Positions 11,812 to 53,406 of a DNA stretch of 64,000 nucleotides are shown piece by piece. Source of the DNA: Escherichia coli (GTDB lineage: Bacteria > Pseudomonadota > Gammaproteobacteria > Enterobacterales > Enterobacteriaceae); NCBI RefSeq assembly GCF_048403405.1, contig NZ_CP183129.1. One strand, written 5' to 3'. Position 1 is the first letter of the stretch, and the number at the start of each line of letters is the position of its first letter. The position numbers were made by a program, and so were the translations under genes. The notes beneath the pieces are model-generated. The model was not told the DNA's origin. It saw only the letters and a list, made by a program, of their open reading frames with translations, and searched no databases.

Positions 11812-12333
11812 ATGAAACGTTTTAGTCTGGCCATTCTGGCGCTGGTTGTTGCGACCGGCGCACAAGCTGCCAGTGAAAAAGTCGAGATGAACCTCGTCAC
11901 GTCGCAAGGGGTTGGGCAGTCAATTGGTAGCGTCACCATTACTGAAACCGATAAAGGTCTGGAGTTTTCGCCCGATCTGAAAGCATTACCCCCCGGTGAA
12001 CATGGCTTCCATATTCATGCCAAAGGAAGCTGCCAGCCAGCCACCAAAGATGGCAAAGCCAGCGCCGCGGAATCCGCAGGCGGGCATCTTGATCCACAAA
12101 ATACCGGTAAACATGAAGGGCCAGAAGGTGCCGGGCATTTAGGCGATCTGCCTGCACTGGTCGTCAATAATGACGGCAAAGCTACCGATGCCGTCATCGC
12201 ACCTCGTCTGAAATCACTGGATGAAGTCAAAGACAAAGCACTGATGGTCCACGTTGGCGGCGATAATATGTCCGATCAACCTAAACCGCTGGGCGGTGGC
12301 GGTGAACGCTATGCCTGTGGTGTAATTAAGTAA
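11812..12333 (+). CDS. sodC: Periplasmic Cu/Zn superoxide dismutase
   Basis: 173-aa product from the ATG at 11812 (SD GGAGG upstream); signal peptide; Cu/Zn SOD His ligands. Confidence 0.93.
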   Translation: MKRFSLAILALVVATGAQAASEKVEMNLVTSQGVGQSIGSVTITETDKGLEFSPDLKALPPGEHGFHIHAKGSCQPATKDGKASAAESAGGHLDPQNTGKHEGPEGAGHLGDLPALVVNNDGKATDAVIAPRLKSLDEVKDKALMVHVGGDNMSDQPKPLGGGGERYACGVIK

Positions 12334-14346
12334 TTAAGAGGCCAGCGTACCTTGTGGCGGTGCTTGCTCAAGTTGCGAAAGCGAGCAGTACAGCCGCCAG
12401 ACAATTGCCGCCAGCTCGCGGGCGGCAGGTTGATGATGGCGGGCAAGGCTGTCGCAAATCCGCTGTAATTCTTCAAGTGTGGCCGCCAGTGATTTTTGCT
12501 GAACGCCACGCTCACTCATCACTCCGCGCAACAGTGAAATACAGTTATCCCGTACTCGCGATAACGGATCGGAACGCGATTCCCAGTCGCGCAATTGCCA
12601 GACAACATGAGAACAGTTCAGCAGCACTACACCCCAGCGTAATAACCAACGGCGAGCCAGCGCATCTTGGCTGTTACTCAACTGACTGACGTGATGATAA
12701 GTGAGCGATTCAAATTCGCTTTCACTCAGTGTTGGATGGCGGCTTAGCTGATCGACAAAATCCCGGCGCAGCGCGCGAATATGACGACGGCTTTTACGAG
12801 CACCCGACCCTGGACGCAAAATGGCGAACGCTAACCACGCCAGCGCAACGCCAACGATTTTTGCCAGATTATCGTTAAGAAAATCAGCAAAATCATACAC
12901 CGGGGGATTAGTGACAGCGATAAACGAACCCATAAAAACAATCAGTTGCCCCCACAGTGCGGCAAATTTGGGCATCTGCAATTTAAGAAGCTGCATTGTC
13001 GCCAGCAGTGGAAAGAGAAACAGTAAAAATTGCCACAGATCGCTAATCTGGACCATCAGGCCAAATTTGACCACAAAGCTGAATAGCGAAAGTAACACCA
13101 GAGTGCGCATCAGTAGTGACAACGACTTAAACGGTGCTGCGACGGCGGAGTAGAGTACGCAGCTAATTGCTGCCAGCGTTAATGCATTGGCACCGGCATC
13201 CCATTGCGAAGCAATACTCCATGCGCCAATCATCATCAACGTACAAAATGTACGCAGTCCGCTCCACATAGCTTCGGCGTTATCGGTATGACGAGCCAGG
13301 CCGGATGTCCGTGGGAGTCTGGTATGATCATCCACACCGCTTTGCAGACGATGTAATTCCTGACTACTTTGCAGATAAAGGCGGCAAAAATAACGTAGTC
13401 GCTGCCAGAAGGCGACGTGCCGGTAGTCGGCGACGTTGGTCGGGCGTAGCGGGGCGATAATACGTGCGACGGTGTAAACATCTGTTTGCGAACTGGCGAG
13501 CGCCGTTAGCAACTGTTCGAGAATTTCTCGCGTGGCACCTGGCGGTGAGGGCCAGTTGAGCAACATACGTCGCAGGCTGGAGATAACACTGGTCATACGT
13601 AATTGCTGGTGGAGTAGCGCATTAAGGCGTGCGTTTTGCTGGCGAAAACGATAGTGGCTCCAGAAAGCCTGGATACGCAGCAAATTCATGGTCAGTATCT
13701 GCCCAATCACCCCCTCATGTGCTGCACGAATGGCATCGGTTGTTTCAGGCTGCCAGAGTAAACTGGCATGTTCCAGTAATCGGGCGTGCATGTTTTTCAA
13801 TGCGGTTAAAAGGGCTGTAGCATCGGAACTACTCGGCAGGATCATCATCATCATGCCGCCGCACAAAATACCGACAATCACCTCGCAAACGCGCGCCTGA
13901 GCGATATCCCACAGCTGGCTGGCCTCAGTAATATTAACCATCGGAAAGGCGATGATGGCAGCCGTGTAGCCCGCCAGTTGAAATGCATACGCGACATTAT
14001 TCGTGAAGTGCGCACAGGCCCAGGTACAAAAGCCAAGCCACGCCGCCATGCTCAAAAGAAAAAACCACGGCTCATTGAGCGTATGTCCGGCAAGAAGCAG
14101 TGCCGCAATGGCTCCGAGCAAACTGCCAGCGATGCGTCCGAGGCTTTTGCTGATGACACCGCCAACGGTGGGAAAGCTAACCACGGCAGCCGAGGTCATC
14201 GCCCAATAGGGTTCATCCAGATTTAAATAATAGGCAACCGTCAGCGCCAGACACATGGCAATGGTATTGCGTAACGCATAACGCCATTGCGCCAGCGTGG
14301 CCCTGAACCAGGGCAAATTGCGCAAGGACCATGACGATGCGTTCAT
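12334..14346 (-). CDS. ydhK: FUSC/AaeB-family inner-membrane efflux protein
   Basis: 670-aa ORF, polytopic membrane protein, AaeB paralogue. Confidence 0.85.
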
Positions 14347-15203
14347 TATTGACCTACGGCAATGCTACAGGTGGTGCCCGACACCAGCGTGACATCACCT
14401 GGGACTTTATCCAGCGCAAAGCGGACGGGAACGCGTTGGGCGAGTCGAACCCAGGGGACGTTAGGTTTCACATCCGGAATAAGGCTTGAGTCACTTTCAA
14501 CGCTCTGATCATAAATCGCCCGACCGATACTGGAAACGTGACCCTGTAACGTTTTGTTATCACTATAGAGGGTAATTTGTGCTGGTGCACCTTCGCGGAT
14601 ATGGCGCAACTTGGTTTCTTCAAAATAACCAATGACGTAAAACGAGTGGCTGTCGACAAGAGCAAACAGCGGTTTCCCGGTGTCAGCGTAATCGCCGATG
14701 CGGGTAGTGAGGTTAGTCACCCATCCACTCACCGGGGCGCGAATTTCCGTTTGCGCCAGTTGCCATTGTGCCTGTTTCAGCGTCGCCTGTGCGGCATCAA
14801 CACTGGCCTGCATCGCTTTAACATTGAGGTTAGCGGTATCGAGTTCTTCGGCAGAAATAAAATTTTGTGAGAGATGACGACGACGATTCGCTTCGTTATT
14901 GGCTTTTGCGAGGTCAGATTGCGCTTTCGCCAGCTGAGCCTGTGCGTTCAGCTCGGCGATCTGAAAGGGCGTTTTATCGATCGTGAGCAGAAGATCCCCC
15001 GCGTTAACCAGTTGGTTGTCTTTTATATTCAGCTCAACAATACGTCCCGACACCTGAGGGGTGATAGAAACCTGTTCTGCGCGTATTTTCCCGTCGCGTG
15101 TCCACGGAGATTGCATGTAATAATTCCACAGCCACCATCCGGCAAGAACCGCAACTACCGCTACAATGATTGTTGAGAAATACTTAATTGTTTTAATTGA
15201 CAT
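14346..15203 (-). CDS. ydhJ: HlyD-family membrane fusion protein (AaeA-like)
   Basis: 285-aa product from the ATG at 15201-15203; single N-terminal TM, coiled coil. Confidence 0.85.
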
Positions 15204-15205
15204 AG

Positions 15206-15442
15206 TTACCACGCAATCAGTATTGCCAGGGCAAGGCAAACGCAAATCGCAAACAGCGATAAATCCATTAACAAGGGATGCCAGATGTCACCGGCGTAGA
15301 TCCAGCCACGAAGCAGGCGGTGTACGACAAGCCAGATGACGAATCCAAACGCGAAGGCTTTGAAAAACGGAGGAAAGTAGACGGACGCACCGAACACCAG
15401 ATCTTGTAAGGGCAATCCTGTTGCATTGAGCATAAACTTCAC
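15206..15442 (-). CDS. ydhI: DUF1656 small membrane protein (AaeX-like)
   Basis: 78-aa ORF, two TM segments, abuts ydhJ. Confidence 0.8.
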
Positions 15443-15614
15443 AAAGTAGATTCCTTTACGACCGAATATATTGCGTTAGATTAATAAATATTCTTTAAGT
15501 GCGAAAAATTTACGCGCAATTTCTGAAAAATATGTCTGACGGTAACCAAATGCAGCAATACATTTGTTTTAGCAATACAATTGCTGCACACTATTCTAAA
15601 AGCCGCATAATATC

Positions 15615-15626
15615 TTAGCAAGCTAA
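15615..15626. promoter_or_regulatory. SlyA-box palindrome TTAGCAAGCTAA in the slyA / ydhIJK divergent region
   Basis: Exact match to the described SlyA consensus, about 15 bp upstream of the slyA start. Confidence 0.55.
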
Positions 15627-15636
15627 TTATAAGGAG

Positions 15637-16077
15637 ATGAAATTGGAATCGCCACTAGGTTCTGATCTGGCACGGTTGGTGCGCATATGGCGTGCTCTGA
15701 TAGACCATCGCCTGAAACCGCTGGAGTTAACACAAACCCATTGGGTTACGTTACACAATATCCATCAGTTACCTCCAGACCAGTCGCAAATTCAACTGGC
15801 AAAAGCGATTGGCATCGAGCAGCCATCACTGGTCCGTACTCTGGACCAACTGGAAGAAAAAGGGTTAATTTCGCGTCAAACTTGTGCCAGCGATCGTCGG
15901 GCTAAACGTATTAAACTGACGGAAAAGGCAGAGCCGCTGATCAGCGAAATGGAAGCTGTTATTAACAAAACCCGCGCGGAAATTTTACATGGCATCTCCG
16001 CAGAGGAACTGGAACAACTGATTAAGCTCATCGCAAAACTTGAGCATAATATCATTGAGTTACAGGCCAAAGGGTGA
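15637..16077 (+). CDS. slyA: MarR-family transcriptional regulator SlyA (start may be the TTG at 15643)
   Basis: 144-146-aa ORF, winged-helix MarR family. Confidence 0.93.
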
Positions 16078-16087
16078 AATGAAGGGG

Positions 16088-16115
16088 GCGTGTGGTCAGT
16101 AACCTGACCACACGC
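16088..16115. terminator. Bidirectional hairpin GTGTGGTCAG-TAAC-CTGACCACAC between convergent slyA and slyB
   Basis: Perfect 10-bp stem. Confidence 0.6.
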
Positions 16116-16123
16116 AAACTTAT

Positions 16124-16591
16124 TTAGCGCGGGGAAACGGTCACCTGACTGCCATTGCTGGCCAGTACGACACGTTGGCCCGGAGAGAAACGAGTGTTGC
16201 CTTGTTTCTGTACCACCATGATGGTATTACCATCGTCTTTACGAATTTCCAGCTCGACACCCTGCGTTTTGTTCATTGCACTCTGTACGCCCTGACCGGC
16301 TACGCCACCTGCAACAGCGCCTGCTGCAGTAGCCAGAGAACGCCCGGTTCCGCCACCAACAGTATTCCCAAGGAAACCACCAAGAACAGCACCGCCAATT
16401 GCGCCGATAACGTTGGAATCATCACCGCCCTGAATCTGTACCGGACGTACGTTAACGATGGTGCCATAGCTGACATTCTGTACTTGTTTCGCTTCAGAAG
16501 CGGTATAAACATCCCCTGACAGGGTGTCGTTATTAACACAACCGACAAGAGACAGACCTACCATTGAAACAACCAATACGCGTTTAATCAT
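16124..16591 (-). CDS. slyB: Outer-membrane lipoprotein SlyB (glycine-zipper)
   Basis: 155-aa ORF; lipobox LVGC; Gly-rich segment. Confidence 0.93.
   Translation of the reverse strand: MIKRVLVVSMVGLSLVGCVNNDTLSGDVYTASEAKQVQNVSYGTIVNVRPVQIQGGDDSNVIGAIGGAVLGGFLGNTVGGGTGRSLATAAGAVAGGVAGQGVQSAMNKTQGVELEIRKDDGNTIMVVQKQGNTRFSPGQRVVLASNGSQVTVSPR

Positions 16592-49698: not shown

Positions 49699-53406
<3,708 letters not shown>

Follow-up and report, generated by a model that had tools for sequence, protein, structure and literature searches.

A conserved ydhIJK-slyA divergon in Escherichia coli: a predicted FUSC-type exporter and a SlyA box that tracks slyA

Genes and features of the ydhIJK-slyA locus

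We analyzed a stretch of E. coli DNA of 64,000 nucleotides (the window), in which positions 12000-16400 are 100% identical to E. coli chromosomes annotated with ydhK, ydhJ, ydhI and slyA (Table 1). The RefSeq annotation of a genome with 100% identity gives the same coordinates for ydhK, ydhJ and ydhI, and the locus was found in 5425 of 5426 complete E. coli genomes. The locus is already known, and its architecture, its regulator, the SlyA box and the homology to AaeAB are all in print; its counterpart in Salmonella has been described by Will et al. 2019 (PMC6401476) and Will et al. 2025 (PMC12506092). As core E. coli DNA, the locus has little importance beyond its correct annotation.

Table 1. 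Features of the ydhIJK-slyA locus, in window coordinates
Feature	Coordinates	Strand	Description
ydhK	12334-14346	-	670 aa; FUSC/ArAE-family inner-membrane transporter subunit; RefSeq 'FUSC family protein'
ydhJ	14346-15203	-	285 aa; HlyD-type membrane-fusion (periplasmic adaptor) subunit
ydhI	15206-15442	-	78 aa; GTG start; small DUF1656 membrane protein with two helices; heads the operon
ydhI-slyA divergent control region	15443-15642		200 bp, AT-rich
ydhI-proximal SlyA-like site TTAGATTAATAA	15476-15487		TTAN6TAA; 9/12 on the minus strand
ACGGTAACCAAA	15539-15550		6/12; E. coli counterpart of the Salmonella site TTGGTAAGCAAA
Second SlyA-like site TTAGCAATACAA	15569-15580	+	9/12; sequence match only; overlaps candidate -35 TTAGCA (plus-strand slyA promoter)
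Conserved block	15592-15621		promoter-like hexamers on each strand, by consensus and PWM match only
SlyA consensus box TTAGCAAGCTAA	15615-15626	+	exact match; slyA-proximal; centred 22 nt before the slyA TTG
slyA	15643-16077	+	144 aa; TTG start; MarR-family regulator; RefSeq coordinates
Hairpin	16088-16115	+	12-bp stem with 8 G-C pairs; within the 46-bp slyA-slyB gap

The initial annotation had described ydhI, ydhJ and ydhK as tightly packed, and both the packing and the coordinates were confirmed. Only 2 nt separate the ydhI stop codon from the ydhJ ATG, and the ydhJ stop and the ydhK start share 1 nt (TAATG). The GTG start of ydhI and its AAGGA Shine-Dalgarno sequence (15452-15456) are kept across 89 loci, among the loci listed. 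The gene next after ydhK is the convergent sodC, and the operon contains no outer-membrane gene. The divergent orientation of slyA, with the box inside the common spacer, was also borne out, as slyA starts on the far side of the control region from ydhI. The start codon of slyA, by contrast, had to be revised: it had been placed at an ATG at 15637, but the annotated start is the TTG. The slyA Shine-Dalgarno sequence AGGAG (15632-15636) abuts the ATG and lies 6 nt before the TTG, whose position is conserved in most of at least 119 orthologous loci.

Downstream, the gap between the convergent slyA and slyB matches K-12 exactly, and the hairpin within it is likely a terminator that closes the slyA unit. 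Searches of the whole 64-kb window with Rfam (gathering thresholds) and ARAGORN gave no matches, which argues that no RNA element is involved.

The predicted exporter and its relation to AaeXAB

YdhK matches the FUSC family of Pfam (PF04632) over residues 20-661 with E=2.9e-140 and 469.4 bits against a cutoff of 30.9. In a Kyte-Doolittle scan, which is a crude method, its hydrophobic segments fall into two clusters (residues 69-171 and 386-512), giving the two membrane regions with a soluble region between them that define FUSC proteins. A PDB sequence search with YdhK returned no match, and hence no solved homologue is detectable by sequence. YdhJ carries the Pfam domains HlyD_3, HlyD_D23 and Biotin_lipoyl_2, scores 135 on TIGR01730 (cutoff 94.9) and has one N-terminal hydrophobic anchor (residues 8-26), features that place it in the membrane-fusion protein (MFP) family. 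YdhI matches DUF1656 (Pfam PF07869, E=1.8e-14, 53.9 bits against 26.5), contains two hydrophobic segments and is encoded upstream of the MFP and FUSC pair, as is characteristic of DUF1656 proteins. In other bacteria, DUF1656 genes are co-fit with MFP and FUSC pumps (bioRxiv 10.1101/072470).

The operon had been called an AaeXAB-like three-gene module, and our comparison agrees with this description. Both operons run compactly from a DUF1656 gene through an MFP gene to a FUSC gene, face a divergent regulator and lack an outer-membrane factor gene, and their products are homologous, with identities of 33% between YdhI and AaeX, 41% between YdhJ and AaeA (E=5e-68) and 24% between YdhK and AaeB (E=1e-27). 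However, YdhK scored 119.5 bits on the AaeB equivalog model NF007916 (cutoff 870) and YdhJ 243.4 bits on the AaeA model NF007850 (cutoff 400), and YdhI gave no hit on the AaeX model NF008615, whereas the NCBIfam controls, AaeB, AaeA and AaeX from K-12, passed at 1219, 609 and 133 bits, respectively. Scores below the equivalog cutoffs, with controls that pass them, indicate that by these profile models YdhIJK are paralogues of AaeXAB, neither equivalogs nor the same pump. The two systems also differ in their intergenic gaps, which measure 7 and 5 nt in aaeXAB compared with the 2-nt gap and 1-nt overlap of ydhIJK, and in their regulators, a LysR-type activator (AaeR) for aaeXAB and the MarR-type SlyA for ydhIJK. 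AaeAB has defined substrates, 4-hydroxybenzoate among them (cited in PMC12506092), unlike YdhIJK, and the remark in the initial annotation that the physiological substrate is poorly defined agrees with that paper.

YdhJ is also similar to EmrA in a profile search, and it reaches 203 bits on the model for MdtN, a component of MdtNOP (SdsRQP), the third FUSC-type pump of E. coli. In that system, the FUSC-family protein MdtO is paired with an MFP; an outer-membrane factor, MdtP, belongs to the pump itself, and it is not known to include a DUF1656 gene. In its regulation, the locus resembles emrRAB, with its regulator MprA, and marRAB, where a MarR winged-helix dimer likewise sits on a palindromic operator in the local control region and is freed by aromatic carboxylates (PMC6401476). 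Unlike these systems, SlyA became a global H-NS counter-silencer (PMC6401476), and slyA and its box have been retained even where the pump was lost.

The SlyA box and the divergent control region

A SlyA operator was defined as the 12-bp palindrome TTAGCAAGCTAA or, minimally, TTAN6TAA, and the box matches the full palindrome. This is its single exact occurrence in 64 kb, where chance would give about 0.007 exact matches per window and about 4e-5 for the spacer. The box is 173 nt away from the start of ydhI; it falls within the predicted leader of slyA, immediately 5′ of the ribosome-binding site. We also considered whether the palindrome could fold into an RNA hairpin within this leader and rejected the idea, as its 5-bp arms would leave a loop of only 2 nt.

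Orthologs were scanned in at least 120 loci, none of them from Salmonella, which was added through an exact-protein look-up. Among the loci listed, the perfect box stands in a fixed register in about 100 Enterobacterales species; in 88 of the 89 loci with a divergent ydhI it precedes the slyA start by 21-23 nt, and it keeps this distance from slyA in 14 of the 17 species without one. Because the box is kept with slyA in those 14 species, it tracks slyA and not the pump, and we conclude that it belongs primarily to the control region of slyA itself. The consensus palindrome reported earlier is therefore exactly where it was said to be but is not specifically the operator of the pump, and experiments on pump regulation in E. 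coli should not presume that it is the relevant one. The DNA used for the Salmonella SlyA footprint was reportedly the Salmonella slyA promoter; if this was the case, the exact match in E. coli reflects orthology and is not independent evidence. The consensus was originally obtained from Salmonella SlyA by footprinting and SELEX, and the box corresponds to a PslyA site that has been listed at 22 bp before slyA (PMC5797941).

That the box is a chance match or functionless sequence in an AT-rich spacer seems extremely improbable. SlyA has a loose binding specificity, and near-matches to TTAGCAAGCTAA are not enriched in the window, where 7 sites with up to two mismatches were seen and 5.3 were expected by chance. 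However, neither point explains an exact 12-mer of such rarity in the spacer, held at a fixed distance from slyA across so many of the species listed, and published EMSA data support the binding of SlyA to fragments that contain the box. In these experiments, SlyA bound the whole 200-bp E. coli spacer (PMC5797941) and a fragment reaching from about 15537 into slyA (PMC3173223).

The spacer has a GC content of 31.5%, compared with 51% for the window; its sequence is that of K-12, and 5405 of 5423 complete E. coli genomes carry it with an identity of 99% or more. It contains three sites with at least 9/12 matches to the consensus, where 0.26 would be expected (P about 0.002); of the consensus matches in the window, this cluster and the exact site are the informative ones. 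The ydhI-proximal one, TTAGATTAATAA, was listed in an earlier study as a candidate 161 bp upstream of slyA (PMC5797941); Escherichia has it, but it is not conserved in Citrobacter or Salmonella. The conserved block can be read in both directions. On the plus strand, a -10 hexamer TATTCT (15592-15597) pairs with TTAGCA (15569-15574) as a candidate slyA promoter; on the minus strand, a -35 hexamer TTGCTA (15621-15616) within the box is followed, after a 17-nt spacer, by a -10 hexamer TAGAAT (15598-15593). In a promoter and terminator scan, counts were at or below the shuffle expectation, so all promoter assignments are tentative; the promoter positions, like the site that acts on ydhI in E. coli, were inferred.

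Control of the pump by SlyA in Salmonella, Klebsiella and E. coli

Evidence that SlyA binds and that it represses in Salmonella and Klebsiella comes from the literature, as do the fusaric-acid phenotype and the response to salicylate. In Salmonella, in vitro repression by SlyA is about 19-fold for ydhI and about 5-fold for slyA, and salicylate relieves it; a ydhIJK mutant is sensitive to fusaric acid, and a slyA mutant is more resistant (PMC6401476). In a Salmonella slyA mutant, the log2 fold changes of ydhI, ydhJ and ydhK are +4.75, +3.08 and +3.50, respectively (PMC12506092 supplement). Loss of the SlyA orthologue KvrA in Klebsiella raises YdhJ 45-fold to over 100-fold (bioRxiv 10.1101/845925). 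The view of SlyA as an ancestral, small-molecule-responsive regulator of this pump, which the initial annotation had adopted, is the published one (PMC6401476).

In contrast to this strong repression, the one E. coli K-12 data set considered shows no de-repression of the pump. The initial annotation had made SlyA control depend on a change of expression in a slyA mutant, and here the K-12 data are unfavourable: the transcript profile of the mutant showed no significant difference from the parent, and overproduction of SlyA raised ydhIJK 2.2-fold, opposite in sign to the effect in Salmonella (PMC5797941). Because deletion has no effect and overproduction acts upward, repression of the pump is unproven in E. 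coli. The title of Corbett et al. 2007 reports positive autoregulation of E. coli slyA, which is awkward for a simple roadblock operator.

Salmonella Typhimurium has an orthologous and syntenic arrangement of ydhK-ydhJ-ydhI with a divergent slyA, followed by slyB and anmK, and its spacer is likewise 200 bp long with a perfect box 22 nt before a TTG start. Transcription of slyA from its best plus-strand promoter, TTGAGA-17-TATTCT, would put the box at about positions +11 to +22. Identity between the two species is 91% over the slyA-proximal 85 nt but 66% over the ydhI-proximal 115 nt. The Salmonella spacer has a single 9/12 site, TTGGTAAGCAAA, about 102 nt from ydhI, which overlaps the -35 hexamer of the ydhI promoter inferred for that species; by its position and match it fits the published ydhI operator, a salicylate-sensitive site with a 75% match near the -35 of the ydhI start site (PMC6401476). 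In E. coli, this site is degraded to 6/12, and the promoter hexamers that it overlaps have become TTACCG and AATTGC. We rejected TTAGATTAATAA as the counterpart of the Salmonella site, as it is specific to Escherichia and, with a site centred there, transcription would begin within the conserved ribosome-binding region of ydhI.

Taken together, and with a probability of roughly 0.8, we regard the locus as a conserved enterobacterial ydhIJK-slyA divergon that encodes a predicted exporter of the FUSC/ArAE type and in which the box is primarily an autoregulatory operator of slyA. The present analysis itself established the gene identities, the paralogy with AaeXAB, where the box lies and that it is conserved together with slyA. 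In our putative mechanism, the transporter YdhK, the membrane-anchored periplasmic adaptor YdhJ and the two-helix subunit YdhI would form an inner-membrane exporter. SlyA, a MarR-family dimer, binds the AT-rich spacer, and its occupancy of this spacer would control ydhI. In Salmonella, the weaker site at the ydhI -35 serves for this, and aromatic carboxylates of the salicylate type release SlyA and thereby de-repress the pump. In E. coli, the Salmonella-type ydhI-proximal operator and promoter are degraded and SlyA levels are low, so that control of the pump may be weak or conditional.

One alternative, which we consider possible but rather doubtful, is that SlyA of E. coli acts on balance as an activator of ydhIJK, by antagonizing H-NS on the spacer as at hlyE and fimB, and not as a MarR repressor of the classical kind. 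The rise of ydhIJK upon SlyA overproduction, the association of ydhIJK with H-NS in one ChIP data set and the binding of SlyA to the spacer (all PMC5797941) would fit this model, as would the low GC content of the spacer and the degradation of the Salmonella-type operator and promoter hexamers. However, the rise is small, was obtained with a multicopy overproducer and has no counterpart in the deletion mutant (PMC5797941), and repression is strong in the close relatives Salmonella and Klebsiella. The title of Corbett et al. 2007 moreover states that slyA expression is independent of H-NS.

It is less probable still, and in our judgment unlikely, that the perfect box is the pump operator and holds the -35 of the true ydhI promoter, namely the minus-strand TTGCTA and TAGAAT pair. 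The ydhI leader would then be about 144 nt long, and one SlyA dimer would block both ydhI initiation and slyA elongation. This element has the top minus-strand sigma-70-like score in E. coli, Salmonella, Citrobacter, Pseudescherichia and Klebsiella and the second-best in Enterobacter. It stays in register where ydhI is divergent, with a median PWM score of 8.9-9.6 compared with a median of about 0.9 in unlinked species, and among loci titled Erwinia it is kept in 4/4 linked species and lost in 3/3 unlinked ones. However, the contrast between linked and unlinked species is confounded by phylogeny, as linked Yersinia, Serratia and Rahnella score low and unlinked Pantoea and Intestinirhabdus score high. 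The conserved block is equally explicable as the -10 of the slyA promoter plus the slyA operator, and its conservation therefore need not concern ydhI. The Klebsiella data also speak for a shared operator, since the box is the only site of at least 9/12 in Klebsiella oxytoca and loss of the SlyA orthologue in K. pneumoniae strongly de-represses YdhJ (bioRxiv 10.1101/845925). In Salmonella, by contrast, the site at the ydhI -35 is a 75% match and not the perfect box (PMC6401476), and the only 9/12 site, TTGGTAAGCAAA, lies elsewhere in the spacer.

A related and similarly tentative proposal, to which we give little weight, is that E. coli has been rewired relative to Salmonella: the ydhI-proximal operator and promoter would have decayed, and ydhIJK would run from the element that overlaps the box or through antagonism between SlyA and H-NS. 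If so, the slight SlyA-driven rise of ydhIJK in place of repression would be accounted for, and the box would be a real shared operator of both transcription units.

SlyA of the window scores 278.9 bits on the NCBIfam equivalog model NF002926 (cutoff 120) over residues 1-143 of 144, matches Pfam MarR and differs from the K-12 protein by a single substitution, T128K. The salicylate-pocket residues listed in PMC6401476 (R14, W16, R17, T32, W34, H38 and T66, numbered from the TTG start) are all present in its translation.

Genes of the ydhIJK-slyA locus and their relation to AaeXAB

Six-frame ORFs, Pfam domains, RefSeq annotation and gene junctions agree on a tightly packed ydhI-ydhJ-ydhK operon with a divergent slyA, as the initial annotation had proposed. 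RefSeq gives the order sodC, ydhK, ydhJ, ydhI, slyA, slyB and anmK at these exact positions; ydhI and ydhJ are separated by 2 nt, and ydhJ and ydhK overlap by 1 nt (TAATG). The window SlyA passes the NCBIfam SlyA equivalog model (278.9 versus a cutoff of 120). Its start, formerly placed at ATG 15637, was corrected to TTG 15643, which is the RefSeq start and is kept in most orthologous loci; the Shine-Dalgarno sequence AGGAG (15632-15636) abuts the ATG and lies 6 nt from the TTG. A simple hydropathy scan found two helices in YdhI, one N-terminal anchor in YdhJ and two hydrophobic clusters in YdhK, each fitting the expected topology.

Features of the ydhIJK-slyA locus
Feature	Position	Strand	Description
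ydhK	12334-14346	-	670-aa ORF (six-frame list); Pfam FUSC, E=2.9e-140, full length
ydhJ	15203 (ATG) down to 14346	-	285-aa ORF (six-frame list); Pfam HlyD-type adaptor domains
ydhI	15206-15442	-	78-aa ORF (six-frame list), GTG start; Pfam DUF1656, E=1.8e-14
SlyA-like site TTAGATTAATAA	15476-15487		at least 9/12 consensus match
SlyA-like site TTAGCAATACAA	15569-15580		at least 9/12 consensus match
Perfect SlyA box TTAGCAAGCTAA	15615-15626		exact consensus match, one occurrence in window
slyA	TTG 15643 to 16077	+	144 aa; Pfam MarR
Hairpin	16088-16115		strong; 12-bp stem with 8 G-C pairs; occupies most of the 46 bp that separate convergent slyA and slyB

The description of the module as AaeXAB-like held, in the sense of paralogy only. 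Both systems share the gene order, comparably tight packing and a divergent regulator, and all three proteins are homologous to their K-12 counterparts (YdhI-AaeX, 33% identity, E=1e-5; YdhJ-AaeA, 41%, E=5e-68; YdhK-AaeB, 24%, E=1e-27). On the NCBIfam AaeXAB equivalog models, which the AaeXAB controls pass, YdhJ (243, cutoff 400) and YdhK (119.5, cutoff 870) stay below threshold, and YdhI has no match. Judged by sequence, YdhIJK and AaeXAB are paralogues and not one pump. The AaeAB homology and the undefined physiological substrate are stated explicitly in PMC12506092; co-fitness of DUF1656 genes with MFP+FUSC pumps is known from other bacteria (bioRxiv 10.1101/072470).

No outer-membrane factor gene is encoded with the operon, and the gene after ydhK is the convergent sodC. 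The stops of sodC (ending at 12333) and ydhK (ending at 12334) abut at 12331-12336 with zero intergenic bases, so each transcript must end inside the opposite gene; the sole terminator-like hairpin downstream of ydhK is weak and lies within sodC (12187-12174, minus strand). The hairpin between slyA and slyB probably works as a terminator in both directions. In Enterobacter, Lelliottia, Superficieibacter and relatives (fetched loci L006, L008, L025, L036, L045, L070 and others), slyB lies about 1.5-2 kb from slyA and not 46 bp, which means that extra DNA is inserted between the convergent genes.

The SlyA box across Enterobacterales

The 200-bp spacer between ydhI and slyA (15443-15642) has a GC content of 31.5%, compared with 51% for the window. 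Three sites in it agree with the SlyA consensus at 9 or more of 12 positions, where 0.26 are expected (P about 0.002). The consensus palindrome reported for this shared control region is indeed there, exact and single in the window; by chance, such a match would be expected about 0.007 times per window and about 4e-5 times in the spacer.

A degenerate DNA pattern encoding the SlyA peptide QTHWVTLHN served to collect at least 120 Enterobacterales loci, in which SlyA, SlyB and YdhI/J/K were placed by tblastn. Enough upstream sequence was present in 106, comprising 89 linked loci (ydhI divergent from slyA) and 17 unlinked loci. Among the loci listed, a box (9-12 of 12 positions) centred 21-23 nt before the slyA start occurs in 88/89 linked and 14/17 unlinked ones, the latter including Pectobacterium, Dickeya, Brenneria, Lonsdalea, Erwinia, Pantoea and Mixta. 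Because the box is in place with and without a divergent ydhI, its conservation tracks slyA, not the pump. The box is very probably first of all slyA's own leader operator, and its conservation is independent of the pump. The gene identities and the presence of the box stood; a reading of the box as specifically the pump's operator was not supported. The best plus-strand promoter by PWM scores is TTGAGA-17-TATTCT in Salmonella, corresponding to TTAGCA-17-TATTCT in E. coli; by this PWM-based placement the slyA transcript would begin about 39 nt upstream of the start codon, with the box at about +11 to +22. Conservation in the linked loci is strong over the ~85 nt nearest slyA and not over the ~100 nt nearest ydhI, in agreement with PMC6401476.

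The 10-mer ACACTATTCT (15588-15597), 17 nt upstream of the box, is conserved in Enterobacteriaceae; Pantoea and Erwinia (e.g. L019, L029, L054) carry its reverse complement AGAATAGTGT, likewise 17 nt from the box. The swap looks like an in-place inversion keeping a -10-like hexamer on both strands. Fragmentary ydhJ and ydhK matches and a truncated SlyA match in Kluyvera genomosp. 3 (L078) suggest pseudogenes, and Hafnia psychrotolerans (L094) has a 57-aa ydhI-like remnant beside an intact slyA, with ydhJ and ydhK absent; both states fit the repeated pump loss described in PMC6401476.

SlyA and the control of the pump

Repression of ydhIJK by SlyA is established for Salmonella and Klebsiella; for E. 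coli it is not. Repression by Salmonella SlyA in vitro is about 19-fold at ydhI and about 5-fold at slyA and is relieved by salicylate, and in fusaric acid a Salmonella ydhIJK mutant grows poorly and a slyA mutant better (PMC6401476); ydhI, ydhJ and ydhK rise by log2 4.75, 3.08 and 3.50 in a Salmonella slyA mutant (PMC12506092 supplement). Klebsiella lacking the SlyA orthologue KvrA has YdhJ up 45-fold to over 100-fold (bioRxiv 10.1101/845925). For E. coli K-12, binding of SlyA to the 200-bp spacer is documented, the same two TTAN6TAA sites (15476-15487 and 15615-15626) are listed, and SlyA overproduction raises ydhIJK 2.2-fold (PMC5797941). The transcriptome of the slyA mutant did not differ significantly from that of the parent in the same study, the sole E. 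coli data set, which speaks against the proposed SlyA regulation of the pump in this species. Corbett et al. (2007) report positive autoregulation of E. coli slyA. The locus is already known and nothing in it is novel in kind; the initial interpretation matches the published one, being largely right on the gene identities and just partly right on the box.

The SlyA contact that responds to salicylate in Salmonella spans 12 bp, has 75% identity to the consensus and is centred close to -35 relative to the ydhI start site (PMC6401476). The Salmonella spacer, recovered by exact-protein look-up, is also 200 bp long and contains the same perfect box plus exactly one 9/12 site, TTGGTAAGCAAA. The centre of this 9/12 site lies 102.5 nt from the ydhI start, and the site covers part or all of the -35 (TTACCA) in a minus-strand TTACCA-17-CATAGT element, in keeping with the published site. 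Its E. coli counterpart, ACGGTAACCAAA (15539-15550), matches at just 6/12, and the hexamers at the corresponding places are TTACCG and AATTGC. Both the operator and the promoter of Salmonella ydhI thus seem to have decayed in E. coli.

Alternatively, the box itself may control ydhI as a shared operator holding the -35 of a minus-strand promoter-like element, which we regard as unlikely. The element, TTGCTA (inside the box)-17-TAGAAT, ranks top on the minus strand in E. coli, Salmonella, Citrobacter, Pseudescherichia and Klebsiella and second in Enterobacter. Linked species keep its register (median PWM score 8.9-9.6, versus about 0.9 in unlinked ones), a contrast confounded by phylogeny. The same block can also be read as the -10 and operator of slyA itself. 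For these two reasons, we retain the shared operator as a rival and prefer the box as slyA's leader operator.

Variation within E. coli and the surrounding window

Several E. coli chromosomes match the region 12000-16400 at 100% identity, and 5425/5426 complete genomes contain it. Relative to K-12, ydhK has 38 nucleotide differences and just 2 amino-acid changes, and ydhJ and ydhI have zero amino-acid changes, which indicates that the three genes are under purifying selection. The sole amino-acid difference in SlyA is K128 (T in K-12; 16024-16026), which lies in the C-terminal dimerisation helix. In 5405/5423 genomes the spacer has at least 99% identity, a level that the surrounding 4.4 kb reaches in only 377; the spacer is identical to K-12, and divergence in the flanking genes is 1-2%, for the most part synonymous. 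The constancy of the spacer covers the ydhI-proximal half too, which diverges freely between genera. In the chicken isolate E. coli SC516 (NZ_CP025048.1; L126 2440-3414), an ISApl1 (IS30-family) insertion about 80 bp from ydhI parts the pump operon from the slyA-proximal box.

The whole 64 kb contains zero tRNA genes and zero Rfam families at gathering score. A Ter-type core GTTGTAAC (minus strand; context TAAAGTATGTTGTAACTAAAGTGG, about 52037-52060), consistent with TerB, adjoins tus (about 51100-52029, mapped to NZ_CP128875.1), placing the window within the replication terminus region. Small indels separate the window from the otherwise identical NZ_CP128875.1: coordinates shift by 20 bp at some point before about 4000 and by 1 bp between 22001 and 22501.
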